The notes: generated from the letters alone by a model not told the origin. DNA of 64,000 bases from an uncultured Bacteroidales bacterium (GCA_934725015.1 CAKVAS010000005.1:123088-187087), one strand, 5' to 3'. Counted from the first letter of the stretch, positions 7,982 through 48,002 are shown. Numbers and translations: made by a program.

Positions 7982-7982
7982 G

Positions 7983-8075: not shown

Positions 8076-8122
8076 CTCCTTTACGCCTACTCCAAGTTGT
8101 TTATTCAGAAACATTAAAAGAA

Positions 8123-8158: not shown

Positions 8159-8165
8159 AGGTTTC

Positions 8166-9020: not shown

Positions 9021-9060
9021 ATCTCAAATTTTCTTACGGTCCAGTAATCGACAGACGCTG

Positions 9061-9068
9061 CAAAAATA
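9061..9068 (-). promoter_or_regulatory. candidate -7 box (TATTTTTG) for the LytTR gene
   Basis: Plus strand caaaaata equals TATTTTTG on the minus strand, about 40 nt upstream of the ATG at 9020. Confidence 0.4.
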
Positions 9069-9117
9069 TTAAATTTGAACCAATTTGGCAAATTTGGGCA
9101 CCAAGAAAAATTTTGAG

Positions 9118-9125
9118 TATATTTG
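9118..9125 (+). promoter_or_regulatory. candidate -7 box (TATATTTG) for fabF
   Basis: TATATTTG lies 33 nt upstream of the ATG at 9158, with a TTTG at 9093-9096 at roughly -33 spacing. Confidence 0.5.
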
Positions 9126-9157
9126 CCGTCCGGAAACGAGAAAAATATTAAACATAT

Positions 9158-31172: not shown

Positions 31173-32222
31173 TCAGCCGATGGTCATGCCGAGGCGGAAC
31201 ATCGGCATATACATGGCAATCAGGACAAAGGCGACTATGGCTCCCACCAAAAGGATGAGGAGCGGTTCGACGATGCTGTTCAGCTGACGGATTTCATGCT
31301 CCAGCTCGGAGTCGAGGGCGTCGGCCTGCGAAAGGAGAGTTCGGCCGAGAGTGTTGGTCTCCTCGCCGACACGGAGGAGGACGAGAAGCCGTTTGCAGTA
31401 GAGGGATTCATGGTGCGCGAGGCCGTCGGACAGTGAGCCTCCCCGTTCGACCTCGGAGGCTGCCTCTTCCAATGACTTGCGGAAGGGATAGAATGTCACG
31501 ATGCCGTGCATGAGGGAAAGTGCTTCGAGCATCGGGACATCCGCACTGACAAGAAGATGGAATATGCGGCAGAAACGGGCGGACTGCCACCTGCGGACAA
31601 GGCGGCTCCAGACAGGGATGCGGAGCTGCAGCGAGGAGGAGATGCGCTGCCATGAGTCCAATCTGCCGTATAGCCTTTTCAGTACATAGCAGATGGCGGC
31701 AGTCCCGGAAAGAAAGAGCAGAACTGACGGAGCATGGTCTGAAAATTCCACTATCCGCCTCGTGATGCCGGGAAGTTCGCCTCCCATCCTCGAATATACC
31801 TGTTCAAACATCGGCACGACCACCAAAAGCATGAACACGAGAACGAGCGCGGCGACCGAAAGGGTTATCAGCGGATAGCTCAGCGCACTTACGACCATCC
31901 GCCGCCGGCTGTCCCGTTTCTCATAGTAGTTCGTCAGAAAGTCGAGAGCCTCCGGCAGCCGCCCGGTCTCCTCGCCTATTCGTGCGACACAGCAGTCCAT
32001 TGTTGTGAATACCGGCTCTGTTCCGAGTGCGCGCCACAGTTCCTGCCCGGCGACCACGCGCCCGAACACCCGCGAGTAAAGCTCCTTCTCCGTCCCTTCC
32101 GCACAGTCGATGAGCAGCCCGAAGGCACGGCTGAAATCCAGTCCGGAGCAAATGAGCGTATGCAGCTGCACGAAGAACGCCTTTTTATCCCGGTCGGAGA
32201 TTTTCTTCTTAAAGATTTCCAT
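31173..32222 (-). CDS. type II secretion / type IV pilus platform protein (GspF/PilC family)
   Basis: Two T2SSF-type repeats (VARIGEETGRLPEALDFLTNYYE and LLRVGEETNTLGRTLLSQADAL), each followed by TM segments. Confidence 0.88.
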   Translation of the reverse strand: MEIFKKKISDRDKKAFFVQLHTLICSGLDFSRAFGLLIDCAEGTEKELYSRVFGRVVAGQELWRALGTEPVFTTMDCCVARIGEETGRLPEALDFLTNYYEKRDSRRRMVVSALSYPLITLSVAALVLVFMLLVVVPMFEQVYSRMGGELPGITRRIVEFSDHAPSVLLFLSGTAAICYVLKRLYGRLDSWQRISSSLQLRIPVWSRLVRRWQSARFCRIFHLLVSADVPMLEALSLMHGIVTFYPFRKSLEEAASEVERGGSLSDGLAHHESLYCKRLLVLLRVGEETNTLGRTLLSQADALDSELEHEIRQLNSIVEPLLILLVGAIVAFVLIAMYMPMFRLGMTIG

Positions 32223-32269: not shown

Positions 32270-32620
32270 TCATCGCGAAGAATATGTTTCTATGTACTTA
32301 TATGTCACGACATTACCACCCCTCGTCCTTGCACTCACCGTCATTCTCCGAAGTTCCGGCACAGTCTCGTGAGGGGCTAGGGAGACAATGATGCAGCCCC
32401 AAGGATAATCATAAGTCCGTTCAACAAACATCTCGTCCACGTCAAGCGCATCGGCCCGGCAGCGTTCAATCTCGCGTTCCACCGCGACAGGACCCGGATA
32501 GTCGATGTCATGGGCGGCGAGGTTTCCGAGAACATCCGTGGCAATTATGAAGACTGCAAGGAATATGACGGAAGCGACCAGCGTCTCCACAAGCGAGTAT
32601 GCGCCAAGTTTAGTTTTCAT
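32270..32620 (-). CDS. minor pilin/pseudopilin-like protein (class III signal)
   Basis: MKTKLGA|YSLVETLVASVIFLAVFII is a prepilin-type N-terminus with Glu at +5. 116 aa. Confidence 0.7.
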   Translation of the reverse strand: MKTKLGAYSLVETLVASVIFLAVFIIATDVLGNLAAHDIDYPGPVAVEREIERCRADALDVDEMFVERTYDYPWGCIIVSLAPHETVPELRRMTVSARTRGGNVVTYKYIETYSSR

Positions 32621-33168
32621 CTTGATTTCAGTTCAATCCTGCGCCCTTTCCAGCCGAGCGTCAGAGTTTCCGGGGAATATGAGACCACATCAAACTGGCC
32701 GACTCTCTCCCCTCTCCCGAGCATGAGCAGTTCCCCTCCGCGGACAATCATGGCCTTTGTCCCGGAGCCGCTGCCGATAATGCCTTTGAATATGAAATCC
32801 GGAGACGGGACGGCTTCCTGCGACGGCGCCGGTGTCCGTGGTCTGGAAGACTTGGCCGGAGGAAGAGGCCTGCTCAGCGGGCGGAGGAAAGGGTCGGGAT
32901 AGTCAAGCGCAAGAGTGTCGGCAGGGCGGCCGTTCCGAAAGGAGACAACCCCCTCTGCAGTAAGAGCCAGACTGTCCGAGCGCATCCTCAGGACATCAAC
33001 GGCTTCAAGAGACGACATCTCCTCATGAAAGCCGCCGGAGCTCGCCTTGCGGAACATCCCGGTCAGGGAAACAATACCCTCATAGAGCGCAAACATCAGC
33101 ACTGCGGAAACAATCATCGTGACCAGGACCTCGGCCAGAGTGCTGGCCTTAAAATATAACCGATTCAT
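32617..33168 (-). CDS. pilin-like N-terminus fused to a PilP/GspC HR-like beta domain
   Basis: MNRLYFKA|STLAEVLVTMIVSAVLMF at the N-terminus. The C-terminus FKGIIGSGSGTKAMIVRGGELLMLGRGERVGQFDVVSYSPETLTLGWKGRRIEL resembles the secretin-contacting HR domain pattern. Overlaps the downstream gene by 4 nt. Confidence 0.6.
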   Translation of the reverse strand: MNRLYFKASTLAEVLVTMIVSAVLMFALYEGIVSLTGMFRKASSGGFHEEMSSLEAVDVLRMRSDSLALTAEGVVSFRNGRPADTLALDYPDPFLRPLSRPLPPAKSSRPRTPAPSQEAVPSPDFIFKGIIGSGSGTKAMIVRGGELLMLGRGERVGQFDVVSYSPETLTLGWKGRRIELKSR

Positions 33169-33170
33169 TT

Positions 33171-34346
33171 TCAGTAGATTTTCTTGATTGTTTTTCTTGT
33201 GTAGGCACCGGACAGGAGAATTGGAAAGGCAAGGGAGTCGCTGCGGACAAAACGCGCGTCACACAAGGTTCCCGGAAAGGTGTTGCCGCCCGAGCGATGG
33301 TAGCAGTCACGGATGTAGGCAGCTCCATAGACATTGCCAGCAAGTTCGCAGGAGCCGTCGATGCAGAGGAGGCCGCGAAGAGTCGAACCATGCTCCTGAA
33401 TATAGCTCGGAAAACGAAGTCCGCTGTCGGCATTCTCGCTGAAAACGGCAATGTAGCCGGAGACCTCGCTGTCGGAACCGAAACGGACAAAGGGGCGGCA
33501 AGCATTTGAGCGGCAACCGTCTGAAGAATGGCTGTCGTCGGCCGCATTGACGAAGATTCCTGACGGGAAACGCAGCACGACGCCGTCCTCGACAATCACG
33601 GTGTCGCTCGCGAAAATCTGCGCAGTCCCTTCAAAGCCTCTCTCCACAGTCACGCTTCCGGCCGAAACAATAGCATCCGACGGCAGTTGCAGGCTTCTCG
33701 AAAGAACGACTCTTTCTCCGAAAAGACAGTCCGGCAAAGGCATATCCCGATTTGCCTTGCTCCATAGCCGGCACAGCTCCGATGCCTTCCTGAAAGCGGC
33801 GGAATCGAACGGAGGCAGGTCAGGGCCGGAGAGCCGCAGGTCAGACTCGGGAAGCGGCAGGCCGGAATAGTAGCGGGAGGCTATCTCCGTGTAGTTCAGT
33901 CCGTTCATAGGTATGTAGGCCAAACCCTCCATCCCGGCATCTGCGGCCAACGACAAGGCGCGGTTGCGGTCGCATATCCAGAACGCCGCCTCGGCCGGGC
34001 ACTCCGTCCTGCGCCCTACCAGCATGGTCATCGCGTCGGGAGAGGAATTGGAAAGGCGCACACGCTCATAGAGTCCCCAGTCGGAAACAGCGACATGAAC
34101 CGAATCCTCGCCGTCGAAAAGGAAGATGTCCGCGCTGTCCCCGGCGGCACAAAGCAGGCTGTCATAAAGGTAGAGATTCAATGCGGAAGCCAGGTTCTCG
34201 CGCTCCTGATGCGCCTCCCGGTAGAGGGCATAGCGCCTGTATTTCAACGCCAGCGAATCATAGGCAAAGAAAATCATCAGCAGGACGACCGCCGACATAA
34301 CCAGCACCGCAGGCAGGGCGTATGCTTTCAAATGCTTTTTCATCAT
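33171..34346 (-). CDS. large minor pseudopilin-like protein (GspK/PilX-like; lacks Glu+5)
   Basis: MMKKHLKA|YALPAVLVMSAVVLLMIFF followed by a domain of about 360 aa. Confidence 0.55.
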   Translation of the reverse strand: MMKKHLKAYALPAVLVMSAVVLLMIFFAYDSLALKYRRYALYREAHQERENLASALNLYLYDSLLCAAGDSADIFLFDGEDSVHVAVSDWGLYERVRLSNSSPDAMTMLVGRRTECPAEAAFWICDRNRALSLAADAGMEGLAYIPMNGLNYTEIASRYYSGLPLPESDLRLSGPDLPPFDSAAFRKASELCRLWSKANRDMPLPDCLFGERVVLSRSLQLPSDAIVSAGSVTVERGFEGTAQIFASDTVIVEDGVVLRFPSGIFVNAADDSHSSDGCRSNACRPFVRFGSDSEVSGYIAVFSENADSGLRFPSYIQEHGSTLRGLLCIDGSCELAGNVYGAAYIRDCYHRSGGNTFPGTLCDARFVRSDSLAFPILLSGAYTRKTIKKIY

Positions 34347-34887: not shown

Positions 34888-35832
34888 TTACAACAAAGTA
34901 TTTAATTTTTCCGCAGGCAGCTGTATATGGATTTCAAATGTGGAGAAATCCTCGTTTCCGGCGCGGTTGAGACCGACTACCTCGATTCCGGAAAAACCGG
35001 CAATATGCTTCATGCTTTCGGAGAATGCTGCGACGGTTGCGGGGTTAAGGGTCTCCCCTTTCAGGGATATGAGCACGCGGTCATCGGGGACGGCAGCCTT
35101 CCGTCGGGACTTCGGTTCATTGAGCAGAATTTCCGTGAGCCTCATTCCGTCCGGAAGGGCGGAGGCGATGGCGTCGCTCCAGACGGACGCTTCGAGCCTT
35201 GCCGTGCTCTCATACTCGGCTACCAGCCTTGAGCGGGCAGAGTTTTTCTCGGACAGAAGCCGCGCCGAGCGGCCTGTCTCGTAGCTGAGAGACTGACGTT
35301 CGGCAAGTTTTTCCGTCAGAGATGTGCTGACCCAGAAATTCGCGGCAAGGACGGCGAGCCAGAACAGGAGAAGAGGCAGGAGCAACTTCCGGAACAGCCG
35401 TGCCGCAAGAAAGTCACGCAGAGCAGCGTCCGACTTCAATGCGCTGAAAGACAGGCTGCGTCTCCTGGCCGCATCAGCCTCGGCGTCAATGTCAATGGAG
35501 CCCAAATCTGCGGTCACGACCGTTCCCGCGACGAACTGCCCCGAACGCTCAAGCCCGGCACGGACATCGTCCGGCAGGGTACGGCGGACATAGTCGATTC
35601 TCGTGCCGTCCGCGTGCTCCGACGAGAGCAGTTCCGGGTTGTCGATTATGCGCCGCACAATCGGATTCGAGCGGTCAAGCTCCCTGCTTCCCACAGCCGC
35701 GCCAGTCACGACCAGAAACATCAGACCGGACTTCGCCTGCTTCAGCCAACGCATGGACACGCCGTCGTGTCCGACATCCGCGACGGCGACGGAAATCCCG
35801 ACAAACTTGAACAGAGAGGAATTTCGTCTCAT
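34888..35832 (-). CDS. bitopic assembly protein (GspL / PilM-N-like)
   Basis: Cytoplasmic domain of about 150 aa, a TM segment (LLLPLLLFWLAVLAANFWV), a coiled region and a C-terminal alpha/beta domain. Its start overlaps the upstream immunity gene stop by 4 nt. Confidence 0.5.
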   Translation of the reverse strand: MRRNSSLFKFVGISVAVADVGHDGVSMRWLKQAKSGLMFLVVTGAAVGSRELDRSNPIVRRIIDNPELLSSEHADGTRIDYVRRTLPDDVRAGLERSGQFVAGTVVTADLGSIDIDAEADAARRRSLSFSALKSDAALRDFLAARLFRKLLLPLLLFWLAVLAANFWVSTSLTEKLAERQSLSYETGRSARLLSEKNSARSRLVAEYESTARLEASVWSDAIASALPDGMRLTEILLNEPKSRRKAAVPDDRVLISLKGETLNPATVAAFSESMKHIAGFSGIEVVGLNRAGNEDFSTFEIHIQLPAEKLNTLL

Positions 35833-36431
35833 TGCTTATTCTGCTTCGCAACCGGAATATCAGACCATTCAAGATAGGTTGCACTGTCCGACTTCCAAAA
35901 ATCGGGATTGCGGACATCGTAGCCCATGGCTTCCGCATAGTCCAGAATCATGTCGTTCGTAAGGCGCTTCTTCTTGATGCGCTCCTTGTATTTTTCCGTC
36001 TGCTCAAACGGAAAAGGCTCCCCGATTTCATAGAAGTCCCAGCGAGGATCCTGCATCACACGAACCATACGTTCCGAATGGTCTCGTCCCCAATGATAGA
36101 AAAGCCTCATGTCATACTCTTGGTCGCCTATCTTGTTTTCCGGATCCAATGTCAGACAAATCCGCGTAATATCATATCCATAGCGGAGATTCAAAACATT
36201 GCATAGTGTATAGAAACCATCTCTCTGATTGCCATACATAGCAGTCTTGTTTTTTGCTGGCCTCCAAAGAACCATCTTGGCAACCAATGAACCATAAGCG
36301 ACGCAAGATAAATCTATTTTCAAGGATGACCTACTTTGGGAAACAGGATATGAAGGCTCTTTTATTTCAATTATTGACCGACAAACCTCCTCAACATCAA
36401 CATCCAAAAAAGAAAAAAAACGCGTTATCAT
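35829..36431 (-). CDS. putative Rhs-tip immunity protein, paralogue 3
   Basis: 200 aa. Shares the MITR.F.F... scaffold and a near-identical C-terminal 76-78 aa with 36610-37212 and 37398-37991. AT-rich. Confidence 0.7.
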   Translation of the reverse strand: MITRFFSFLDVDVEEVCRSIIEIKEPSYPVSQSRSSLKIDLSCVAYGSLVAKMVLWRPAKNKTAMYGNQRDGFYTLCNVLNLRYGYDITRICLTLDPENKIGDQEYDMRLFYHWGRDHSERMVRVMQDPRWDFYEIGEPFPFEQTEKYKERIKKKRLTNDMILDYAEAMGYDVRNPDFWKSDSATYLEWSDIPVAKQNKQ

Positions 36432-36446
36432 TTTCTTATTATTTTA

Positions 36447-36611
36447 TTATTTTATAATTCTGTCAAATAGTGTGAGACCATCCATTATCAGTTCATATTC
36501 AACATTGGCTTCAATAACCTTTTTGTGCCGGTCACTGTTCTTCTTGCTTCTGTCCACCTCGTAGTTATGGTGAACGCCATCTGCATTCCACTGGACATCA
36601 GGACGATTGTC
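36447..36611 (-). pseudogene. orphan Rhs toxin-tip fragment 2 (last 54 codons, no start codon)
   Basis: DNRPDVQWNADGVHHNYEVDRSKKNSDRHKKVIEANVEYELIMDGLTLFDRIIK aligns with the Rhs1 C-terminus NNRPDVQWNQGGHHYNYEVDRTRKNSDRHRKIIKKNDP.... It begins on the stop codon of the preceding immunity gene. Confidence 0.8.
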
Positions 36612-37212
36612 ACTTCTGCTTTGCAACCAGAATCCACGACCATTCGAGATAGGTTGCACTGTCGGACTTCCAAAAATCGGGATTGCGGACATCGTAGCCC
36701 ATGGCTTCAGCATAGTCCAGAATCATGTCGTTCGTCAGGCGCTTCTTCTTGATGCGCTCCTTGTATTTTTCCGTCTGCTCAAACGGGAAAGGCTCTCCGA
36801 TTTCATAGAAATCCCAACGAGGGTCCTGCATCACACGGACAAGTCGCTCAGTACCATTCGATCCCAAGAAATGAAACAGACGGAACAAATATATATCCGA
36901 ATCATTTATTTTATTGTCCAAGTCCAAGGTGAGGCTGATACTCGTAACATTGTAACCAAAACGATGATTCAAAATATGACATAAAACACTGAATCCATCA
37001 CTCTGATTCCCATAAATGGCAGTTTGCCCAGAACTGGGACTCCATAAGACCATTTGGGCAATACGCGAACCTATATCTTCATAATCCAACACTATTTTCA
37101 GTTTAGTCGGAGCATATTCTGTTACAGGATACTCCGGTCCCATTATATTGATAATATTAGATATTATATCATTAACATCTCCGATTATAAACGAAAAATC
37201 ACGTGTAATCAT
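36610..37212 (-). CDS. putative Rhs-tip immunity protein, paralogue 2
   Basis: 200 aa. Divergent N-terminal two-thirds. The C-terminal VRVMQDPRWDFYEIGEPFPFEQTEKYKERIKKKRLTNDMILDYAEAMGYDVRNPDFWKSDSATYLEWS is shared. Confidence 0.7.
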   Translation of the reverse strand: MITRDFSFIIGDVNDIISNIINIMGPEYPVTEYAPTKLKIVLDYEDIGSRIAQMVLWSPSSGQTAIYGNQSDGFSVLCHILNHRFGYNVTSISLTLDLDNKINDSDIYLFRLFHFLGSNGTERLVRVMQDPRWDFYEIGEPFPFEQTEKYKERIKKKRLTNDMILDYAEAMGYDVRNPDFWKSDSATYLEWSWILVAKQK

Positions 37213-37219
37213 TTTCTTA

Positions 37220-37399
37220 TTATTTTATTATTCTGTCAAATGGTGTAAGACCATCGATTATCAGTTCATATTCAAACTCAGCTTTAGGGTCATTCTTTTC
37301 AATAACCTTCTTGTGACGGTCGCTGTTCTTCTTGCTTCTGTCCACCTCGTAGTTATGGTGAACCCCATCCGTATTCCACTGGACATCAGGACGATTGTC
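37220..37399 (-). pseudogene. orphan Rhs toxin-tip fragment 1 (last 59 codons, no start codon)
   Basis: DNRPDVQWNTDGVHHNYEVDRSKKNSDRHKKVIEKNDPKAEFEYELIIDGLTPFDRIIK. The junction TGACAATCGTCCTGATGTCCAGTGG is the same as for fragment 2. Confidence 0.8.
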
Positions 37400-37991
37400 A
37401 CTTCTGCTTCGCAACTGGAATATCAGACCATTCAAGATAGGTTGCATTGTCGGATTTCCAAAAATCAGGATTGCGGACATCGTAGCCCATAGCCTCCGCG
37501 TAGTCCAGAATCATGTCGTTCGTAAGGCGCTTCTTCTTGATGCGCTCTTTGTATTTCTCAGTCTGCTCAAACGGAAAAGGCTCCCCGATTTCATAGAAGT
37601 CCCAGCGAGGATCCTGCATTACGCGAACCAGTCGCTTTTCATGCTCTTTTCCAATATGGCAAAACAACCTCATATCATAAACTTCATCATCTATCTTGAT
37701 CTCCGGATCCAATGTCAGACAAATCTGAGTAACATCATATCCATAACGCAGATTCAAAACATAGCATGTTGTATAGAACCCATCCGACTGGTTACCATAC
37801 ATAGCAGTCTGATTTTCGGAAATACTCCAGAGAGCCATCTTGTTAATTATGCCACAATTAACATAGGACAAGTCAATCTTTAACGGAGCAGTTGTTTTTT
37901 GAACAATATGTCTTGCCTCTTTCATACTCACTATTGCGTTACCGACACTTTCGAGGTCGGCTTTAATAAATGTAAAATACCTTGTAATCAT
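37398..37991 (-). CDS. putative cognate immunity protein of the Rhs1 tip, paralogue 1
   Basis: Starts 7 nt after the Rhs1 stop. 197 aa, same family as paralogues 2 and 3. Confidence 0.75.
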   Translation of the reverse strand: MITRYFTFIKADLESVGNAIVSMKEARHIVQKTTAPLKIDLSYVNCGIINKMALWSISENQTAMYGNQSDGFYTTCYVLNLRYGYDVTQICLTLDPEIKIDDEVYDMRLFCHIGKEHEKRLVRVMQDPRWDFYEIGEPFPFEQTEKYKERIKKKRLTNDMILDYAEAMGYDVRNPDFWKSDNATYLEWSDIPVAKQK

Positions 37992-37998
37992 ACTCTTT

Positions 37999-40900
37999 TT
38001 ATTTTAAAATTATAATCGGGTCTAATGGGGTGATCCCATCTATTATTTCACATTCGAATTCAGATTCAGGATCGTTCTTCTTAATAATTTTCCTATGACG
38101 GTCACTGTTCTTCCTAGTTCTGTCAACCTCATAGTTATAGTGATGACCTCCCTGATTCCATTGAACATCCGGACGGTTGTTCCCAACTTTATTGCCATCA
38201 ACATCGACTTGAACCTGATTTTTACGAATCTGTTTTACATCATTCTGAGGTATGAGTTCTTGAATCTTCTGGTCAATAGCATCATTATGGTCAGCATTTC
38301 CATGCGGTTTCGCATCGCCTCCGTTAGGTTTCGGTCCACGCTTCATCCCCTTGGCAACATCCGTGGCGTTGTCAACGCATTCGGCAGTCTTCACCGCATC
38401 CAATGCCTTGTCGGCTGCCCTTGTCGCATCCACCGCGTCATCGACGGCATCCGCAGCCTTGGCGGCCTTGATTCCCGCTCGCACGGCTCCGACTCCTCCC
38501 GGGACGAGCGGGACGGCAGCCGCAACCATGTCCACGACGATGCCGCCGGCGTCAAACACCGCGCCCCAGACATTGCCGGCCCTGACATTGTCGGCGAAGC
38601 TCCTGACGCCGAGCCCCACGCTGAACAGGTCCCAGACAATGTCGGGGAACCTGCCGTCCGGATCCACAAAGTTAACAGGATTATTCAGACAAAAGGCATA
38701 CGGGGAGAAATTCGCCGTCTTTTCCGCCAGGGCATCGGAGGTGTGCCAGCGCATCAGCACCGGGTCGTAATGCCTCGCCCCGAAGTCGTGCCATCCGAGA
38801 CCGAACTCGCCGACGCGCTCCTTGCCCAAGTACTTGTACGGCTGAGTGTCCGGAACCGGCGTCGAGAGCAGCGCTCCGGACGGATAGTAGGAGTTTATCT
38901 CCTCCACCGCGCCGTCCCCGTTGCGGACGAGGCGGACGCTGCCGAGATAGTCCCTTATGAAGTGGCGGTACTTTCCGTCCCTGAAGGAATAGTATCCCGT
39001 CGCGGTCTGAAGCATCTCCGGAACGCCGTCCCGATATATCACGCCGTCGAAATAGTCCCTGCGGACATCCTCCCTGCCGGGTTCCTCTACCGTCAGCGAG
39101 CGCTTCCTCCCCTCCGCATCCCAGCCATACACAAGCCTGCCGCCGCTCCCGAACGAAATCGTGTCAGGCAACGACAGGTGGTTGTACGAGAGCGACAGTC
39201 CCCGGTTGTCGTCATGCACGAGGTTTCCGCAGGCGTCATACTCATACTGAACCGCCGCCCGCGAACCGCCGTTGAAGCGGTTGTATGCACGGTTCGGATG
39301 CTCGGTCGCCACGGCGTCGCCCACACGGACCAGATGGTTGCCGTCGTATTCCAGCGTCAGGTCATCCACCCGCTCGAAGGAATTGTCTCCGGTCTGTCCT
39401 GTTCGCCTGAGGCTGAGGAGATTGCCGTTGAGGTCGTAGGACGGAAACATCTCGTCGTATCGTCCGATATTATCCATCAGAGCAGAACCCTCGGCGTAAC
39501 TTGCCGCAGTAAGCCGTCCGGATGCATCATAGCCATACTTGTAGCCCTGCCACTGCTGATTCCCCACCTTCCAGCTGACGGCGCTCACGAACCCGTTATG
39601 GCGGCGAGCGCCGGGTCCGATGTTGTAGTACAGGTTCTGGCTGAAGTCCGTCCCGGAGATTGAGGTGGGCAGGTTCCTTATGTTATAGGAATATGACAGG
39701 CTGTCCAGACTCTCCCCATAGACGGTCTTCACGAGCCTTCCGACGTCGTCATAGACGTTCCGCAGAAGCGGTTTCATGTCCCCGCCGTTCATCGCATGGG
39801 ACGTTTCCGCGAGCCGCCCCGCGCGGTCGTAGCCGAATGCCTGCGTCTCGGTAAAGACGGTGTCCGCGCCGCGAAGATGAACCCTTTTCTTCAGGGTCGG
39901 CCTGCCGGCGATGCTGTAGTTGGTGAAGACCTCGTCCATGACGCCGGTTCGCGTGTCATGGGAGGCCGTCCTCACCGGGCGGTCAAGTTCGTCGTACCAG
40001 TATGACGTGAGCGTCTCACCCTCACCTGCCATGTCACGCACTCGCCTGCCGGTCAGCTGCCCGACGGCAGAGATGTCCCTGCCCTCAACGACATTGTCAT
40101 GCACCGGCACGAAGCGCGAGTCCGGCGCCACGGGAGCGGCAGGCAGAGAGGCCGCGATGCAGGAAAGAGACCTGTAGTCGTAACTGTCGTAGTAACTTAT
40201 GGTAAGATACTCCGGCTCGGCAAGAGTCAGATTGCTTATCACATACCCCGTCTCGCCAGTCGTGAGTCCGGACGGGCTCGCATACACGAAAAATGACTTT
40301 ATGCCCTCTACATCCGTGTTGCGGCAGAGCCCCGTCATGACCTGACGGCCGTGCCTGTCGGGAATCTCAAAACGCCATTTCCCCTCTTTTCTCAGTTCGC
40401 CGTCCTGAACGAATATGCAGTGTCCGGCCCTGTCGTAGTGCCGATACTCCCATTCCTTGCCGGGCTCCTTGACACGAACAGGACGGTTCAGAGGGTCATA
40501 GCCATAAATGTAGGCATATTTATCCAGCAGAGCCTGCTTTTCTTCTTCTGTCGTCACAGAGTCGAGGGCGGCGGAAGCCATAGGCGGAAGGACAATCCGC
40601 AGATTTCCGTAGTTGTCGTAAAGGAAGTATGTATCCAGACGCGTGCCGCCGAGGAAGCGACGCTCAAGCACCGTCTGGCCCACCGGATTGACAAAGGAGA
40701 ACACGGTTATGCCGTCCTCGTCGGACGACTCGCGTATGTTCAGATAGCCGTCCGGATACAGTCCCGAGGACGAGAAACGGTCGTTGTCACGCTCCCTGAC
40801 ATAGACAAACTGCAGCAGCCGGCACGAGCGGGCGGAGGTCGTGCCGTTCAGGGAATATTTCCTTGACCTGAATTTCCGGTCATTCCGCCAAGCCTGTCCC

Positions 40901-43900
40901 GGCCCGTGTTCCTCAAGCAGTCGGCCGGAGGATGACTTCTCATGGACATATTCCGAGTACGGGGACATATCATTGTAATATCCTCGGGTATATGGCAGAA
41001 GCCCCTGAAAATAGTTTCCGTCGGACTCGACTGGCGTCGGGAGCGACTGCCGGACGACTCTCCCGAGCGCGTCCGGCACAATGTCCGAGACCACGTCCTT
41101 CCCGGAACTCCCTACCTGACGAGCCACAGACTGAACCGGATGCCCGAAGGCATTGTAAAAGTCACGGGTTCTGAGATGGAGGGTGTCGTCGAGACGGGTG
41201 CTCGTCCCGATGCTGTTGCGGGTGACGCTTCCGGAATAGCCGAAGCTGTAGTCGTATGACTTCAGCGTCTGCCACCTGCCGCCGACCATAACTTTTTCTT
41301 TTGTCAGGCGGCCGCAGCCGTCGTATTCGTAGCCCGTCCGCCGCCCGTCGGGAGCGACCGTCCCGGTGAGTCCGACCAGAGGAGTGTATTCATATCGCCT
41401 GACATGGGCATCCGGGAGCAGCGCCGGCAGTTCGTCAAGGGAGCAGCCGCTGCCTATCTCACTCTCCACCTGAGAATACGTAGCGTTGCGCACGACCAGA
41501 GACGGATACCTGTCGTCAGTTCCCCACAGATAGACATAAGGCACGCCGTCCTCATCAACGGCACTGAGCGGCTGTCCGTGAGAATTGAACATCCCGACCT
41601 CGAAGGTCCGCTTCCACTCGGGAGAATTGCTGTTTGTGTAATAGGTCTCCGTCTTCTTCTCACAGATGTTGCCCCCGTCAAGGACATAGTGATGGTTCCT
41701 CGTCACCGTCGGCCCGGTGATTTTCGTCAGCCGAGTGTGCGTCTCCTCTATCACTGCCGAGACAAAGTTCCTCGCCGCCATGGTGTCAAGGACGGCGGAA
41801 GGAAGAAGGGAGGAGTCGTACAGGTAGCGGCGGAAAGACACATCGCGCCACAGACCGGAACCGTTTTTTACACTGCGGTCGTGGTATGTGCACAACGAAT
41901 GCGACCTGACGTCACGGTCTATCGCATTATAGGCATACGACTCCGTTGTTACCTTAGGTGTGTCACCGTCATATTCAGTCGTTTCCGTCCCGACAAGCTT
42001 CTTCCATCCCGTCGAGACGCAGATGTCGAAGAAATAGAAGTTGAAGACTGACTTGCAATAAAAGTACAGAAAATCGCCTGTATCCGCCACATTCCAATCT
42101 CTATAGCGCGGAAGAATTCCCTTGGAATAAATGCCGACAGGCTCCCTGTCTTTCCGCCCAAATTCTTTGTATGTGTTTTTTACAGAGCGCTTCAGTGCAT
42201 ATTCTCCGCCTTTCCATTCGTATTCGTCCAAGCTGGAAAGACAGCCGTTGACCCATGAATTGTCAACGACATATCCCGGAATCTCATACCTTGAATCAGA
42301 AAATCCGCCAATCCTCTGAACAGATGTATATAACCCGGAGCCCATGGCCTCCGAGAGTTTGTCCTTCCATTGCGTGTAGGCCTCACGCTGTGAACTATAA
42401 TACCTTTCCTGAAACTGGGCCGTCGATACGAACTCAGGCTCTTTGACATCAAAGCCATATACAGTCTTCAAGGTGTCGGACGGTGCGGAAGAGTCCGTTA
42501 TCTTTTCAACAATCCTGCGGTATGCAATCCGGGCAGAATAATTGTAGCCGGGAACCAGCGGCTCCGAACTGCACGTCCATGACTGAACGATTTCAAAATC
42601 TGCGCTTTCGCCCTCGACATTCAGATTTCTTATCTGCGACACCGAATAGTCCTCAAACAGGCTTGAGCCAAAGGATATGTTAAAATGCTGCGGGTTCGAA
42701 TAGTCATAGTTCCGCGTAATCGTCCGTCCCGTTGCCAAGTCTTTTGAGATTACTTTCTTCACCTTGATTGCCGGAGTTCGCGGTATGTCATAATCCTCCG
42801 TGTCATAAACGAACTCGGTGTATGCTCCGGTTATGCCAGTTACCGACTTGAGAGAATGAATTTTTGCCGCGCTCGCCGAATGACTCCTGTCCGCGATATA
42901 GGTGTCATAATATTTGTCCCCGACAGGCAGATAGCCCAGCAGGCTCGGATTGGACTTGCCGTTGTAGTACCCCTGCAGGTCCTGGGCATAATAGCAGTTG
43001 GGGGAACACATTGCCAGATAGCCCAGACTGGACTTGGCGGCAAGGTCCGACACGGAGACGTCCTCATTATAATACTTGAAGTCATAGCTGTCATAGACAG
43101 TTTCAGCTGCGCCCTTGAAAGTCACCGTCTCCAGTTTAAGGCGGCCTCCGGCAAACTTACCATGTTCAAACTCAACTATCCGCAGTTTCTTTCCGTATTT
43201 GTCATACAGAGTTATTCCAGCAAGGCGAAACCGCCGTCCGTCAGCATTCGATTCCGCAGTAGTGAACACAAGCTTGCCCTGAGAGAACGTTATCTCTTTC
43301 AGAACAGGTGCGGAGTTCACCGTCCTCGTGTGGATGATGCTGCTGGCCTCACGGTCCGGCTGGGCTGCTCTTCCGACCTGCCTGATTTCATAGGAATGGG
43401 ACAGGGTCCTGTCGATGTATAAGTCCGAACGCCCGGCATAGACAAAGTTTATACTGTCCGTTTTGTTCATTGAGACAATCTTTGTCAGATACCATGCGCT
43501 GTCGTATGTATAAGACTCGCACAGCGGACTCATCCTTCCGGTCTTATGGTTATAGACCGTGGATACAACCGTCGATGTCTCCGCCTGTTCATAGTAATAG
43601 GAGGTTCCGCTGTCGTCAGTGATGACGAATCCCGCCGTCAGTTTCCCTGTACTGTTTACAAGCCTCCGGATGCGGTTTTCAGTATATGGAACCTGCAAAT
43701 AGTTATTGTAATCGGTAATGTAGAATGAGCCTCCGGTCTTTCCCGTCGTGTAGTCGTAGCGGTCGCGCATCTTATCCGTGCCGTTGAGACCGTTGCTCTT
43801 TTCCGCTATGGTCAGATTGAGAGACGCTGCGTCTTTGTCCGCACGGATTTTTGAGGCAGTCGGAAGTTCCGGGTTCATACTCTTGTCCGGAAGCCCGTTG

Positions 43901-44256
43901 ACCGTGAGGTTCACTACGCCTCCGGCGTTCAGCACCCAGCCGAGTCCCGCCCAGCTCGCCTTGTCGGTGACCCTGACTCCGCCGCCGATGTAGGAAAGGG
44001 ATACGGGGAATGTCAGTTCGCGGGTACGGATTTCATAAATGGGAATTGACACGTCGACCTGTCCCGAAGCCTGAGAGACGGAATACTGTCCGTAGTTGAG
44101 AAATGCGGCGGCCTCGGGCGTGGGAGGAACGAGATAGGGATTGTTCTCCGCGGACATGAGAGTGCTTCCGACGGCGAGGGTCTGTGCCGGAAGACGGAGG
44201 CCTGACGAGGCGAGAAGCAGAGCCAGAGTGCAGAGGGTCAGCAGTTTCTGTTTCAT
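37999..44256 (-). CDS. Rhs/YD-repeat polymorphic toxin 1 (Sec signal, SpvB-like N-terminus, YD repeats, Rhs core, PT-TG-like region and nuclease-like tip)
   Basis: Signal MKQKLLTLCTLALLLASSGLRLPAQ and SpvB-type SIPIYEIRTRELTFPVSLSYIGGG...GLGWVL. Many YD repeats (YEYDGCGRLTKEK, YGYDPLNRPV, and others). The core ends at NNPVNFVDPDGRF (about 38649-38690) and a 215-aa tip follows. Confidence 0.92.
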   Translation of the reverse strand: MKQKLLTLCTLALLLASSGLRLPAQTLAVGSTLMSAENNPYLVPPTPEAAAFLNYGQYSVSQASGQVDVSIPIYEIRTRELTFPVSLSYIGGGVRVTDKASWAGLGWVLNAGGVVNLTVNGLPDKSMNPELPTASKIRADKDAASLNLTIAEKSNGLNGTDKMRDRYDYTTGKTGGSFYITDYNNYLQVPYTENRIRRLVNSTGKLTAGFVITDDSGTSYYYEQAETSTVVSTVYNHKTGRMSPLCESYTYDSAWYLTKIVSMNKTDSINFVYAGRSDLYIDRTLSHSYEIRQVGRAAQPDREASSIIHTRTVNSAPVLKEITFSQGKLVFTTAESNADGRRFRLAGITLYDKYGKKLRIVEFEHGKFAGGRLKLETVTFKGAAETVYDSYDFKYYNEDVSVSDLAAKSSLGYLAMCSPNCYYAQDLQGYYNGKSNPSLLGYLPVGDKYYDTYIADRSHSASAAKIHSLKSVTGITGAYTEFVYDTEDYDIPRTPAIKVKKVISKDLATGRTITRNYDYSNPQHFNISFGSSLFEDYSVSQIRNLNVEGESADFEIVQSWTCSSEPLVPGYNYSARIAYRRIVEKITDSSAPSDTLKTVYGFDVKEPEFVSTAQFQERYYSSQREAYTQWKDKLSEAMGSGLYTSVQRIGGFSDSRYEIPGYVVDNSWVNGCLSSLDEYEWKGGEYALKRSVKNTYKEFGRKDREPVGIYSKGILPRYRDWNVADTGDFLYFYCKSVFNFYFFDICVSTGWKKLVGTETTEYDGDTPKVTTESYAYNAIDRDVRSHSLCTYHDRSVKNGSGLWRDVSFRRYLYDSSLLPSAVLDTMAARNFVSAVIEETHTRLTKITGPTVTRNHHYVLDGGNICEKKTETYYTNSNSPEWKRTFEVGMFNSHGQPLSAVDEDGVPYVYLWGTDDRYPSLVVRNATYSQVESEIGSGCSLDELPALLPDAHVRRYEYTPLVGLTGTVAPDGRRTGYEYDGCGRLTKEKVMVGGRWQTLKSYDYSFGYSGSVTRNSIGTSTRLDDTLHLRTRDFYNAFGHPVQSVARQVGSSGKDVVSDIVPDALGRVVRQSLPTPVESDGNYFQGLLPYTRGYYNDMSPYSEYVHEKSSSGRLLEEHGPGQAWRNDRKFRSRKYSLNGTTSARSCRLLQFVYVRERDNDRFSSSGLYPDGYLNIRESSDEDGITVFSFVNPVGQTVLERRFLGGTRLDTYFLYDNYGNLRIVLPPMASAALDSVTTEEEKQALLDKYAYIYGYDPLNRPVRVKEPGKEWEYRHYDRAGHCIFVQDGELRKEGKWRFEIPDRHGRQVMTGLCRNTDVEGIKSFFVYASPSGLTTGETGYVISNLTLAEPEYLTISYYDSYDYRSLSCIAASLPAAPVAPDSRFVPVHDNVVEGRDISAVGQLTGRRVRDMAGEGETLTSYWYDELDRPVRTASHDTRTGVMDEVFTNYSIAGRPTLKKRVHLRGADTVFTETQAFGYDRAGRLAETSHAMNGGDMKPLLRNVYDDVGRLVKTVYGESLDSLSYSYNIRNLPTSISGTDFSQNLYYNIGPGARRHNGFVSAVSWKVGNQQWQGYKYGYDASGRLTAASYAEGSALMDNIGRYDEMFPSYDLNGNLLSLRRTGQTGDNSFERVDDLTLEYDGNHLVRVGDAVATEHPNRAYNRFNGGSRAAVQYEYDACGNLVHDDNRGLSLSYNHLSLPDTISFGSGGRLVYGWDAEGRKRSLTVEEPGREDVRRDYFDGVIYRDGVPEMLQTATGYYSFRDGKYRHFIRDYLGSVRLVRNGDGAVEEINSYYPSGALLSTPVPDTQPYKYLGKERVGEFGLGWHDFGARHYDPVLMRWHTSDALAEKTANFSPYAFCLNNPVNFVDPDGRFPDIVWDLFSVGLGVRSFADNVRAGNVWGAVFDAGGIVVDMVAAAVPLVPGGVGAVRAGIKAAKAADAVDDAVDATRAADKALDAVKTAECVDNATDVAKGMKRGPKPNGGDAKPHGNADHNDAIDQKIQELIPQNDVKQIRKNQVQVDVDGNKVGNNRPDVQWNQGGHHYNYEVDRTRKNSDRHRKIIKKNDPESEFECEIIDGITPLDPIIILK

Positions 44257-44299: not shown

Positions 44300-45988
44300 T
44301 CATAGTATCGTCGGCTTTATGAAGATGTTGAGCTTCGTTTCGGTCCTGTTCTTCTTCGTCTTGCCGAATACGGAGCGGAGCACCGGGACACGGGAGGCAT
44401 AAGGAAGGCCTCTGGAGGAATTGTCCGTCAGGTTCTTCTCGATGCCGCCGAGCAGGACCATATCCCCGTCCTTGACCCTTATGATGGAAGTGAAGCTGCG
44501 CCTGGAGATTCCCGGAGGGGCATATTCGTCGTCCTTCGAGCCTGTGTCGGTGAACTCGTCCTGGCTGAGGCTGACCGTGAGGGTGATGGTGCTGTCGCGG
44601 CTCATGTACGGCGTGATGTCGAGGACGAAGTTCGCCTCGACGTTCTTCCACAGATAGGACTCCGACTGCAAGGGATTCTGCGTGCCGATGATGTTCACCT
44701 GACTTTCCTTGTAATATTTCACCTCGCCGCTCTTCAGCACGGCCTTGTGACCGTTCAGAGTGGATAGCCTCGGCGTGGAGCGGAGCGAAATCCTGCCGCT
44801 CTCCTCAAGGAGCTGGAGGTCGGCATAGAAAAACTGAGAAACCTGTCCCAGATTGATTGAGCCGAGACCGCTGAACGACGCGAGCAGGCGGTTTATCGAG
44901 TCCGCGTTAAGCGTCAGGCCAAGCCCCGGCGAGAAAGTAGCACTGTTCTTTCCCTTCTCAGAACCGACTCCAAGCCCCAGCCCGAGGGACTGCGCGGAAC
45001 TTGTCGTCGCATCCACAATCATCACGTCAATCGAAATCAGCGGAACGCTCACGTCTATCTCGGAAAGGAACGACAGGATTTCCGACGCCGCCTGTCTGTC
45101 TCCGCTGACGACGACGCCGTTGAGGTCCGTGAACGGCGTGATTTCCATGTTCTGCTTCAGCGAAGACGGGATTATGTTCACGACATCCTCGACAGTCCTG
45201 TGCCTCATGGCATAGACGACGGTTCCGGTCTGCGGAGACGCATCCTCCCGCTCGTCGAAGAACGCGGAAGAGAATGCGCCGCGTTCCTTTCCGCTCTCGA
45301 ACAGACACCACGAATCTCCTTCCCGGCGGGCAGAAAGCACATTCACGGCCGCGATGGTCTTCACGGCCTCGTCGAGTGTCATTCCCGTTCCGAACGCCGA
45401 CACCTGCCGCTCGGCCAATGAATTGGGATAAAGGAGATTGCATCCGGTCACTGCATTGAAGCGGCGCGCCACTGCATCAAGCGTGCAGGCCGAGATGTCG
45501 AAGGAAAACGCCGTGCTGTCCGCAGAGTCACGGAAAAACCTGACCTCCGGGGCCGGCACTGGAGGAACGAAGTCAGTCAATGCGACTATATCCCCGGAAA
45601 ATGTCGCCTCTATGCCTTTCTCGTTACAGATGAATGCCAGAACATCGCAGACCGGTATTTTCTGGATATTGCAGGTAATCGTCTTTCGCTTGTCGAAGTT
45701 TATGGCGATGCTCAGCCCGTTCGATATGGCAATGCCCTTCATGAGTTCGGCGACCGAGAAGTTGGTCACTGAGACATCTATCTCATTATTGTAGGCAGGG
45801 ATTCTTTCGGCCAGGGCGGAAAAGTTCCGGCGCAGAAGCCAGGCGCGGGATGTCGAATCTGCGGCGGGGAGACACGACGGGAAGGCCGATGACCGGCTAT
45901 GCTTGGGGCAGGTTCCGAAGAGCCGGGCCGGACTCAGAATGAGGAGGCAGGCCAGACTTAAAATCAGGGAGAGAAGGCAGCGTTTCAT
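44300..45988 (-). CDS. secretin (GspD/PilQ family outer-membrane channel)
   Basis: Signal peptide, N-domains, and a C-terminal secretin domain ...TPRLSTLNGHKAVLKSGEVKYY...VKDGDMVLLGGIEKNLTDNSSRGLPYASRVPVLRSVFG...TETKLNIFIKPTIL. Confidence 0.9.
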   Translation of the reverse strand: MKRCLLSLILSLACLLILSPARLFGTCPKHSRSSAFPSCLPAADSTSRAWLLRRNFSALAERIPAYNNEIDVSVTNFSVAELMKGIAISNGLSIAINFDKRKTITCNIQKIPVCDVLAFICNEKGIEATFSGDIVALTDFVPPVPAPEVRFFRDSADSTAFSFDISACTLDAVARRFNAVTGCNLLYPNSLAERQVSAFGTGMTLDEAVKTIAAVNVLSARREGDSWCLFESGKERGAFSSAFFDEREDASPQTGTVVYAMRHRTVEDVVNIIPSSLKQNMEITPFTDLNGVVVSGDRQAASEILSFLSEIDVSVPLISIDVMIVDATTSSAQSLGLGLGVGSEKGKNSATFSPGLGLTLNADSINRLLASFSGLGSINLGQVSQFFYADLQLLEESGRISLRSTPRLSTLNGHKAVLKSGEVKYYKESQVNIIGTQNPLQSESYLWKNVEANFVLDITPYMSRDSTITLTVSLSQDEFTDTGSKDDEYAPPGISRRSFTSIIRVKDGDMVLLGGIEKNLTDNSSRGLPYASRVPVLRSVFGKTKKNRTETKLNIFIKPTIL

Positions 45989-45996
45989 ATATCAGG

Positions 45997-47358
45997 TCAC
46001 ATGGTGTTCAGGATTGGGGCAATCTCCTCAAGCGAGGTCTCCCCGGATTCATAAAGGGCCAGCGCGGATTCGCGGAGCGTCCGCACGCCTTTCTGAGACA
46101 GGATGCCGCTGACGTCGCGGGCATTTTCGCGGACGGCGTAGGACAGGGAATCGTCAATGCGGATGACCTCATAGATGGCCTTGCGGCCGAGGTAGCCGGT
46201 GTAGTGGCACTGCGGGCAGCCAACGGCCTTGCCGGAGGAGGACTTGCAGTGAGGACAGAGAAGCCGGACAAGCCGCTGCGCGACGCAGGCGACGAGGGTC
46301 TCTGAAATCAGGTAGGGATGGACACCCATGTCGGCGAGCCTCGTGATGCAGCCCCACGCGCTGTTCGTGTGCAGGGTGGAGAGCAGGAGGTGACCGGTCA
46401 GAGAGCTGCGGACTGCCATCTCGGCGGTCTCCTCGTCGCGGATTTCCCCAAGCATGATGATGTCCGGGTCCTGGCGCAGGAAAGTCCGCAGAGCCACCGG
46501 GAATGTCAGCCCGATTTCCTCCTTGAGCTGAACCTGGTTGATGCCGTCGAGGGTGTATTCAATCGGATCCTCGATGGTGAGGATGTTGTTGTCGCCCCGG
46601 TTCAGCCGCTCAAGCGTCGCATAGAGCGTCGTGCTCTTTCCCGAGCCGGTCGGACCGCTGATGAGCACAAGCCCGTGGGGACGGCCGACCGCGTCGAGAT
46701 AGTCCCGAAGCTGACGCTCGTCGAAGCCCAGTTCATCAAGGGAGATGTGCCGCCCGTCACGCGAGAGCAGGCGCAGGACTATCTTCTCCCCGTAAATCGT
46801 CGGCATCACCGATGTCCGGATGTCAAACTTGACGTCGCCACGCGAATACATTATCCTCCCGTCCTGCGGAAGCCTCTTCTCCGCGATGTCGAGGTTCGAC
46901 ATGATTTTGATCCGGTTCACGATGCCCGGATAGCGGTCGCGTCCGACGACATGGCGCTCAATCAGCTTCCCATCCACCCGGAAGCGCACCCGGCACCTGT
47001 GCTCCGAGGGTTCAAGGTGAATGTCGCTCGCACGCACACGGAATGCCTCCTCCACGAGTTCCCCGACAAAGTCCTGCCCGCCCAAGGCTTCACTCTCTGA
47101 ATGCTCCTGCACGCCGGTCTGCCGGTAGTTTGAGGACAGCAGCCTCGTCAGTTCGTCCGGAGCCACGGGATGCAGCGAGAGCCGCAGTCCATACACCGTC
47201 TCAACCTCCTCAACGACAGCGTCATAGGCCTTCCCCTCGTCGCAGTAGCACGCCACCTCTCCGTCAGATTCCCGTCCGAACGGGACAAGGCGGTAGTAAA
47301 AGGCCTCGTCACCGGTGAACAGCTGCAGGGCCTCAGTCGAAATCTTTTGTGGTTGCAT
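45997..47358 (-). CDS. type II/IV secretion assembly ATPase (GspE/PilB family)
   Basis: GspE-N-type N-terminal domain, Walker A GPTGSGKSTTLYA, Asp and His boxes, and the tetracysteine motif CPHC...CPQC. Confidence 0.92.
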   Translation of the reverse strand: MQPQKISTEALQLFTGDEAFYYRLVPFGRESDGEVACYCDEGKAYDAVVEEVETVYGLRLSLHPVAPDELTRLLSSNYRQTGVQEHSESEALGGQDFVGELVEEAFRVRASDIHLEPSEHRCRVRFRVDGKLIERHVVGRDRYPGIVNRIKIMSNLDIAEKRLPQDGRIMYSRGDVKFDIRTSVMPTIYGEKIVLRLLSRDGRHISLDELGFDERQLRDYLDAVGRPHGLVLISGPTGSGKSTTLYATLERLNRGDNNILTIEDPIEYTLDGINQVQLKEEIGLTFPVALRTFLRQDPDIIMLGEIRDEETAEMAVRSSLTGHLLLSTLHTNSAWGCITRLADMGVHPYLISETLVACVAQRLVRLLCPHCKSSSGKAVGCPQCHYTGYLGRKAIYEVIRIDDSLSYAVRENARDVSGILSQKGVRTLRESALALYESGETSLEEIAPILNTM

Positions 47359-47468: not shown

Positions 47469-48002
47469 CTACAGCGTGAACAATGCCGCGAATATCAACA
47501 AAAGGACAATTATCAAGGGAAGTGACCCCTCATCCTTACATTTTGAGGCATAATCCCCCTGCTCCAAACGCAATAGTATTCGTTCGGGAAATACCATGAC
47601 ACCGGGCCAATAGTTCCTCTTTTTCCAAGGAACAAATGGAGTCCAATAACAACGGCCGCCAACTTTCCAAACATTCCAGGACAAGGCTCCTTTCCAAAGC
47701 CAAAAGACTTGTCGCCTGTAATCTGAAGAAACCGGTGCAGTTGCATACAAAGTCCAAAAACCATCTCTTATCCCCACATACACAGAAGTATGAGAATACA
47801 ACACCACATCATCCGCCAGAATCTTTTCCAATGAAATATTTTCTTCGGCGGAATATCGGTGGCTATATACACAGATAATGTCACTATCCAATGCGTATTC
47901 ATCAATTGCCACGAACTGAAAATACTGACGTCTGTCATCCGGCCATCTTATTTCAAAGACATCTCCGGGAACCGGTTTTCTATGTTTCATTGTTTTTACC
48001 AT
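47469..48002 (-). CDS. hypothetical protein, AT-rich (candidate orphan immunity protein)
   Basis: 177 aa, no signal peptide. It is the second gene downstream of the Rhs2 tip and sits in a visibly AT-richer block. It has a hydrophobic C-terminal tail. Confidence 0.55.
   Translation of the reverse strand: MVKTMKHRKPVPGDVFEIRWPDDRRQYFQFVAIDEYALDSDIICVYSHRYSAEENISLEKILADDVVLYSHTSVYVGIRDGFWTLYATAPVSSDYRRQVFWLWKGALSWNVWKVGGRCYWTPFVPWKKRNYWPGVMVFPERILLRLEQGDYASKCKDEGSLPLIIVLLLIFAALFTL

Follow-up and report, generated by a model that had tools for sequence, protein, structure and literature searches.

An array of orphan immunity genes behind an Rhs toxin gene of an uncultured Bacteroidales bacterium, likely built by repeated displacement of the toxin tip

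We describe here an array of immunity genes found behind an Rhs gene (Rhs1) in a stretch of 64,000 nucleotides from an uncultured Bacteroidales bacterium (GCA_934725015.1, CAKVAS010000005.1:123088-187087), hereafter called the window. Based on our analysis, this locus is likely to be an archive of immunity genes that has been filled by repeated C-terminal displacement at the end of a gene for an Rhs nuclease toxin. The immunity gene in the cognate position for Rhs1 is followed by two further modules, and these are the remains of earlier resident toxin/immunity pairs, each made up of a whole immunity gene and the 3' half of a toxin domain.

All features of the array lie on the minus strand, and the coordinates that we give (Table 1) are positions in the window. 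A repeat finder returned three tandem units with a spacing of 775-788 bp. Each toxin fragment starts right on the stop codon of the immunity gene ahead of it, and the string at this place, AAGTGACAATCGTCCTGATGTCCAGTGGAAT, is identical in both; in the case of fragment 2, the first codon shares two nucleotides with the TGA of the first immunity gene (imm1) and is read in the +1 frame relative to it. The homology of the fragments to Rhs1 starts at the NNRPDVQWN motif of Rhs1 (38178 downward), and an in-frame deletion of 15 nt has taken the conserved NDP motif out of fragment 3. At the other end of the array, the TGA of the last immunity gene (imm3) overlaps the ATG of a PilN-like gene as ATGA. 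The GC content is 0.37-0.47 over the toxin domain and the array, against 0.55-0.64 in the flanks, and the AT-rich zone already begins at the toxin domain of Rhs1, at about 38350. A previous inspection of this DNA, made from the sequence alone (the sequence-only reading), had proposed that an array of orphan tips and immunity genes lies behind Rhs1, with two displaced modules that each hold a tip end (59 or 54 codons) and a full immunity paralogue, one and the same junction placed exactly on the preceding stop codon, a base composition richer in AT than that of the flanks, and a place between a secretin gene and a "GspL-like" gene. The coordinates, repeats and base composition agree with this description, and Rhs1 is a true Rhs gene, the last gene being PilN-like according to Pfam. 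The order secretin, Rhs, immunity array, PilN-like gene is kept in relatives, including L005 and L098-L105 (L numbers are labels of related loci).

By scanning genomes and metagenomes, we recovered about 30 close loci, which belong to uncultured Bacteroidales of the gut, for example UBA6408 and UMGS764. The number of orphans differs among them, with none in L028, one in L004, L005 and L023, and two in the window. Immunity genes abut without a fragment in L021 and L026, and in L108 the array consists of types E, D and B (immunity types are described below) with no fragments between the genes. The same module of toxin A, immunity gene A and junction was found in front of three different resident arrays, namely B-C in the window, C-D in L106 and L114, and C' in L113. 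Because of this, we conclude that the arrays grow by displacement, for which homologous recombination would be the simplest route.

One displacement can be followed by comparing L106 (toxin A, immunity A, junction, fragment, immunity C, junction, fragment, immunity D, PilN) with L098-L105 (secretin, Rhs, toxin, immunity C, junction, fragment, immunity D, PilN). From CTGATGTT, just behind the junction, L106 shows 100% DNA identity to L098 over 1.6 kb, and in L098 this stretch starts in the middle of the main toxin gene, running from its 3' half onward. On the left side, L106 matches the Rhs1 tip and immunity gene A of the window with 94-100% identity. The toxin N-halves of L098 and L106 share only 78% identity, and therefore L098 is not a deletion product of L106. 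The linker of L106, being 93% identical to both the window and L098, is uninformative on the background. The same join was found in three assemblies from three samples, with L114 100% identical to L106 and L113 carrying the same front module on a different, single-gene resident array; we thus rejected the idea that L106 is an assembly chimera joined at a repeat. Orphan tip variants were also found on full-length Rhs genes elsewhere, a search that the sequence-only reading had suggested: the main tip of L005 and L098 is 95% identical at the protein level to fragment 2 of the window.

Across the window and 15 or more related loci, the immunity genes end in only three ways. Internal genes with a fragment behind them end as CAGAAG-T(G/A)A-CAATCGTCC... 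Where the fragment is cleanly missing (L020, L021, L022, L026 and L108), internal genes end in CAGAAGTAACA joined directly to TAAAATAGTAAGAAAATG, a join that leaves about 19 nt of the old tip end ahead of the next immunity start. The terminal gene always ends in CAGAATAAGCC(A)ATGA over the PilN start, in every relative that reaches PilN. The orphan junctions are identical in the window and in those 15 or more loci. Since one junction is common to all orphans of several lineages, it appears to have arisen once and to have been copied since, and the modules do not represent two independent events. Microhomology (GAATAA) between the immunity 3' end and the toxin GNN codons was considered as the origin of the junction, but it fails to reproduce the actual junction sequence.

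We propose the following course of events. One old illegitimate event would have fused an immunity gene, at its stop codon, to a toxin sequence starting with the NRPD codons, creating the junction described above. Donor DNA from a relative, comprising the Rhs core, a new toxin, a new immunity gene, the junction and the conserved tip head, would then enter by ordinary homologous recombination. The crossover on the left would fall in the Rhs core or linker, and that on the right between the donor tip head behind the junction and the NRPD...KNSDRH stretch of the resident main toxin. The outcome would be a new toxin/immunity pair in front, followed by a resident toxin cut exactly at the junction and a resident immunity gene that is retained. 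Later unequal recombination between immunity C-halves, junctions and tip heads may shuffle, expand, contract and remove pieces. The retained immunity genes would protect against toxin variants that relatives still use, and the tip fragments would be scars that double as homology arms, and not working toxins.

Table 1. Features of the immunity array, of Rhs1 and of the surrounding gene cluster (positions in the 64,000-nt window)
Feature	Position	Strand	Remarks
Rhs1	37999-44256	-	open reading frame, 2085 aa
Linker between DPDGR and toxin domain	38368-38648	-	about 95 aa, Gly/Ala/Val-rich
Toxin domain of Rhs1	38002-38367	-	122 aa modelled; family scan, AlphaFold2 model
Toxin N-half (helix 1, variable loop QELIPQNDVKQ, strand 1)	38179-38367	-	in main gene only, missing from both orphans
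Toxin 3' part (NRPDVQWN...IIILK)	38002-38178	-	homologous to orphan fragments
Immunity gene 1 (imm1), type A	37398-37991	-	197 aa; cognate position for Rhs1; ends ...AKQK-TGA
Orphan toxin fragment 2 (DNRPD...DRIIK)	37220-37399	-	59 codons + stop
Immunity gene 2 (imm2), type B	36610-37212	-	200 aa; orphan
Orphan toxin fragment 3	36447-36611	-	54 codons + stop
Immunity gene 3 (imm3), type C	35829-36431	-	200 aa; last of array; ends ...KQNKQ
Open frame extending fragment 2 upstream to ATG	37220-37480	-	86 aa; alternative frame of imm1; mechanical open reading frame
Open frame extending fragment 3 upstream	36447-36713	-	88 aa; mechanical open reading frame
PilN-like gene	34888-35832	-	directly coupled to array; Pfam PilN, 9e-5
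Secretin gene	44300-45988	-	directly upstream of Rhs1; Pfam Secretin, 2e-33
Cluster of three Rhs genes and secretion-machine genes	31173-63826	-	
GspF	31173-32222	-	
Pseudopilin-like genes	32270-34346	-	
GspE	45997-47358	-	
Rhs2	48981-55733	-	
Rhs3	57884-63826	-	

The immunity genes belong to a small family (88 clusters), in which the N-terminal 120 residues are variable and the C-terminal 75 highly conserved. By their N-halves, the genes can be sorted into discrete types (A, B, B', C, D and E). The first immunity gene behind the main toxin is of type B in L023 and of type C in L003, L005 and L098, which supports the view that the orphan types B and C of the window would be the cognate immunities of main toxins of relatives. 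Together with the purifying selection discussed below, this also favors the earlier suggestion that the array may confer immunity against the toxins of relatives. In Neisseria flavescens (L014, 8913-10192; also L015 and L016), a homologue of the toxin with 201 aa (IRINQQQV...CRPDVQ...YIEYD) is followed by a gene of 189 aa that shares the conserved C-half of the immunity family. Such a recurrence suggests that the pairing of toxin and immunity gene is old and consistent and crosses phyla, lending support to the immunity assignment.

In L025, a 3.3-kb insert (6600-9900) lies between two immunity genes of the array. It contains two pairs of unrelated small genes (216 + 181 aa and 208 + 188 aa), and the 181- and 188-aa members resemble the window gene at 57338-57871 and a 179-aa gene of L108. 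It seems, then, that immunity genes of other families may also be collected at the array site.

The immunity paralogues of the window have a proportion of synonymous differences (pS) of 0.62-0.80 in the N-half, which means saturation, and a synonymous divergence (dS) of 0.34-0.85 in the C-half, where the ratio of nonsynonymous to synonymous divergence (dN/dS) is about 0.03. Because their N-halves are saturated at synonymous sites and their C-halves are that far apart, they are alleles of old standing and not recent duplicates. Between same-type copies of different lineages, including window B compared with the cognate-position B of L023 and window C compared with L003 and L005, the corresponding ratio of proportions (pN/pS) was 0.17-0.44 in the N-half and 0.05-0.16 in the C-half (0.20 and 0.05, respectively, for imm2 against the B gene of L023). 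Such low values argue that the orphan immunity genes are maintained under purifying selection.

Lineage, and not type, determines how the C-half DNA groups: identity in this part is 98-100% among the three genes of L026 and 99% between types D and E of L004, against about 90% for same-type genes across lineages. Immunity gene A of the window differs from that of L106 (577-1170) by a pS of 0.027 in the N-half but 0.257 in the C-half, with a sharp recombination boundary at the RVMQDP motif. Both the grouping by lineage and the different divergence of the two halves of gene A indicate that the immunity C-half, the junction and the tip head act as a recombination sequence flanking variable cassettes, by which cassettes are shuffled.

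As for the toxin fragments, they start at residue 64 of the 122-aa domain and are thus without helix 1, strand 1 and the residues H22, H27, Q51, Q53 and D55. They contain neither core nor linker sequence, nor the complete toxin domain that characterizes canonical Rhs orphans. Among main genes, the most variable part of the toxin is the stretch upstream of NRPD, notably the loop after helix 1, and this stretch matches the type of the first immunity gene in all nine main pairs (type A in the window and L106, C in L003 and L005, D in L004 and L027, B in L023, and B' in L026 and L028). Sliding identity over the toxin N-half is 64-80% between lineages, and in relatives that are otherwise 98-100% identical, the variable block begins about 195 nt ahead of the NRPD codon and ends about 565 nt behind it. 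Mantel correlations with immunity were r = 0.80 for the toxin N-half and r = 0.56 for the tail, both to be read as descriptive only. The tail of L023 shows 98% identity to the tail that goes with type D in L004 and L027, in a toxin whose N-half and immunity gene are B-like, and of two tails that are 95% alike, the one in the window is followed by type B and the one in L005 by type C. The two orphan fragments of the window are 91% identical to each other, with an exact match of 41 nt. Between the window Rhs1 tip and the orphan heads, DNA identity is 71-76% and the longest exact matches are 9-15 nt, which would make them a poor substrate for recombination. Several fragments are decaying, as seen from the NDP deletion in fragment 3 of the window, from NRSD in L106, L113 and L114, from NNCPD in L020 and from a truncation in L003, and fragments have gone entirely from some arrays (L021, L026 and L108).

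These data bear on two other ways of explaining the array. The regular spacing of the units and their identical junction would also be expected if a 780-bp unit of tip end plus immunity gene had been duplicated twice in this genome and had then diverged in place, and some such illegitimate event must indeed have made the first junction. As an account of the array itself, however, a local tandem duplication is quite improbable: synonymous sites of the immunity N-halves are saturated, types B and C have counterparts of 80-92% identity in other lineages, the array content of close relatives differs in ways that need transfer, and a fragment of L106 is 100% identical to the main toxin of another strain. 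The sequence-only reading had interpreted the fragments as a reservoir for toxin switching, in which recombination between the Rhs1 tip and an orphan would swap the last 54-59 residues and make the orphan immunity gene the cognate one, yielding a new specificity as in the Salmonella Rhs orphan (PMC3967940). The occurrence of the same tail variants in main and orphan positions of different genomes fits this idea, as does the partial linkage between a tail and the immunity type that follows it, and the usually D-linked tail on the B-like N-half of L023 means that crossovers inside the tip do happen. Yet the immunity gene of L023 follows the N-half and not the tail, closely similar tails precede different types in the window and in L005, and the fusion would delete immunity gene A. 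In addition, an orphan tail was found on none of the contigs with an A-type toxin N-half (the window, L001, L002, L106 and L114). We consider switching of this kind unlikely. Because the fragments hold just half of the catalytic fold, are devoid of the variable part that tracks immunity and share only 71-76% of their DNA with the Rhs1 tip, they probably do not serve as a reservoir for toxin switching, and we find it fairly likely that they are scars serving as homology arms.

A further possibility concerns the expression of the fragments. Contrary to the earlier statement that they have no in-frame start codon, both fragment frames continue without a stop for another 27-29 codons upstream, where they run through the 3' end of the immunity gene ahead of them, and in-frame ATGs lie inside that gene, 16-29 codons upstream of the fragments. 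From these ATGs, the fragments might be expressed independently as small proteins of 75-88 aa with a role as decoy or regulator, and on public contigs gene callers do annotate a 75-aa open reading frame over the fragment. Nevertheless, an equivalent open frame is present at the end of the last immunity gene, with no tip behind it (35675-35938), and likewise in relatives; for this reason, the open fragment frame looks like a by-product of conserved immunity codons and not like a sign of expression. The ATGs derive from the same codons, one of them being lost in L004, relatives delete or mutate fragments without effect on the immunity genes, and the product would be half a fold, so that independent small proteins are very improbable. 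A +1 frameshift or read-through at AAG-TGA-C, fusing the immunity protein to the fragment, was considered too and rejected, because other lineages use TAA, there is no slippery site and the fragments are dispensable.

Returning to the archive built by displacement, some points weigh against it. The direction from L098 to L106 was deduced from their differing toxin N-halves. The proposal that specificity resides in the toxin N-half draws on about five independent modules, and linkage and shared descent inflate the Mantel values. Immunity function was assigned to the array genes from position, covariation and conservation; the proteins have no sequence relative in Pfam, NCBIfam or PDB, and their structural model, although confident (predicted local distance difference test score, pLDDT, of 87), found no PDB fold match with E < 0.06 in Foldseek. 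Finally, the assignment of the toxin to a nuclease fold depends on topology, motifs and weak Foldseek matches (E >= 0.08).

Rhs1 contains DUF6443 and RHS_repeat (Pfam) as well as Rhs_assc_core (NCBIfam, 3e-18), and its Rhs-associated core ends in ...NPVNFVDPDGR, the PxxxxDPxG(L/R)-type end expected of a full-length gene. Its N-terminus reads like a signal peptide. A word-index protein search with the toxin domain returned only eight matches, and a full HMMER scan was needed to recover the family, which comprises 353 representative clusters. The domain is C-terminal in every member, in Rhs, PT-HINT and DUF6443 proteins of up to 3184 aa. Searches of Pfam, NCBIfam and PDB sequences gave no match for the toxin domain or the immunity proteins, nor did any Pfam Tox-REase model match the toxin domain; the only exception was a sub-threshold match to Ntox10 (18 bits; cut-off 26.8) in the linker ahead of the toxin, seen in other members of the toxin family as well.

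The AlphaFold2 model of the toxin domain (pLDDT 90.7) has the order alpha-beta-beta-beta-alpha-beta, with helices at 25-38 and 85-98 and strands at 44-49, 68-72, 75-82 and 103-108. Besides the five residues absent from the fragments, those conserved in the family are N64, P66, D67, E80 and D82. In the model, P66-D67 precede strand 2 and E80-V-D82 lie within strand 3, both motifs being conserved. The top Foldseek matches are nearly all PD-(D/E)xK nucleases (R2 endonuclease domain, Can2, BspD6I, Bax1, Hjc and RecU), none of them significant (best E 0.08). Taken together, topology, motifs and these weak matches suggest that the Rhs1 toxin is probably a nuclease of the PD-(D/E)xK type, with a restriction-endonuclease fold.

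Two observations on Rhs genes of relatives may be added. In L098, L101, L102 and L105 (134-3211), the Rhs between the secretin and the immunity gene has just 1025 aa, with residues corresponding to about 280-1400 of the window Rhs1 missing. L100 has a RecG gene and an Rhs remnant of 301 aa where the secretin and Rhs would be. Either a true deletion or a collapse in the assembly would account for this. With respect to transcription, minus-strand matches to TAnnTTTG, the -7 promoter motif of Bacteroidetes, occur at 36886-36893, inside imm2, and at 38667-38674, in the Rhs1 linker upstream of the toxin domain. Such sites could be internal promoters for the immunity genes, in a window that is enriched for the motif over its whole length (32 matches against 16 expected).

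The array belongs to a larger cluster in which three Rhs genes are found together with genes of a secretion machine (Table 1). No genes of a type VI secretion system (T6SS) were seen in this cluster, nor any link to a T6SS in the window, the neighbors being GspE, secretin, PilN-like, pseudopilin-like and GspF genes. Pfam searches with the genes that follow Rhs2 and Rhs3 gave no match, and no tRNA genes were found in the window. A full-text search of the literature, which was limited and does not prove absence, turned up no account of an operon of this kind with Rhs genes in Bacteroidetes. It is possible, and we put it forward tentatively, that this machine, resembling a type II secretion system or type IV pilus (T2SS/T4P), exports Rhs nucleases bearing Sec signals. 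The array would then be a translationally coupled part of that undescribed delivery operon of uncultured gut Bacteroidales, and the junction with the tip head would be a portable "stacking handle" under selection, with which new toxin/immunity modules could accumulate by ordinary recombination while the old immunity is retained.

A different genotype was found at the syntenic site of L108/L111, a 165-kb contig from a Hadza gut metagenome with at least nine similar contigs, which we compared with positions 26432-64000 of the window. The site is flanked by NAD synthase and peptidase M6, as in the window, and has neither Rhs genes nor the machine. What it holds are homologues of the window genes at 47469-48002 (after Rhs2) and 57338-57871 (after Rhs3), immunity genes of types E, D and B, and a PilN remnant of 60 codons. 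Such an immunity-only genotype fits a defensive value of the immunity genes.

Orphan immunity arrays built by displacement are known from other bacteria; what sets this one apart is the truncated tips, the one portable junction and the setting in a secretion operon. Arrays of acquired interbacterial defense genes (AID) in Bacteroidales are reportedly associated with recombinases or mobile elements. No recombinase or mobile-element genes adjoin the window array, whose flanking reading frames are Rhs1 and T2SS/T4P-like genes; moreover, it lies in a chromosomal operon, at the 3' end of the toxin gene to which it belongs, and the toxin is an Rhs protein with a signal-peptide-like N-terminus. AID arrays and their recombinase-associated variant (rAID) in gut Bacteroidales (Ross 2019, bioRxiv 10.1101/471110) reportedly have in common with our locus that the orphan immunity genes are thought to protect against toxins of neighbors, and the immunity-only island of L108/L111 would be similar in effect.

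With the orphan rhs-CT/rhsI modules (CT, C-terminal toxin region) that arise by Rhs C-terminal displacement in Enterobacteriaceae (Jackson 2009 as cited in PMC5361080; Poole 2011, PMC3150448; Koskiniemi 2014, PMC3967940), the window shares a full-length Rhs, a variable C-terminal toxin and an adjacent immunity gene, as well as displaced downstream tip/immunity modules whose variants are found on full-length genes of other strains. Canonical Rhs orphans keep the whole toxin domain and some of the core, and in Salmonella 522 bp with 95% identity lie upstream of the CT, from which the orphan can be revived by fusion (PMC3967940). In contrast, homology in the window starts within the toxin domain, exactly on the previous stop codon, all orphans share one junction, and the fragments cannot encode a complete toxin. 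The sequence-only reading was right to regard the retention of just the C-terminal part of the tip as unusual.

A parallel in the way of growth is also found in the orphan immunity arrays of the Vibrio cholerae T6SS, which are attributed to sequential displacement (Kirchberger 2017, PMC5361080). There, as here, the incoming module replaces the effector, the old immunity gene stays, and the orphans match cognate genes of other strains; the benefit proposed is protection against kin still carrying the old effector (PMC5361080). Additions to the V. cholerae arrays were proposed to occur by rare homology-facilitated illegitimate recombination (PMC5361080), whereas the shared junction and the conserved tip head of our locus would allow ordinary two-sided homologous recombination, and given one portable junction no new illegitimate event would be needed for each addition. 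The two also differ in that the window toxin is the tip of an Rhs protein in a T2SS/T4P-like operon and not a T6SS cargo effector.

How orphan arrays are built up has so far been deduced for the most part from static genomes, and the mechanism usually proposed is rare illegitimate recombination. The locus described here offers a population series with no, one and two orphans, tip-less arrays and immunity-only islands, along with one displacement visible at 100% DNA identity and a portable junction that would enable ordinary homologous recombination. Moreover, the locus allows two roles to be told apart that are commonly treated as one, that of immunity genes kept under selection and that of toxin remnants too short to be revived. 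Finally, the association of three Rhs genes with a T2SS/T4P-like operon suggests a route by which such toxins may be exported in Bacteroidales.

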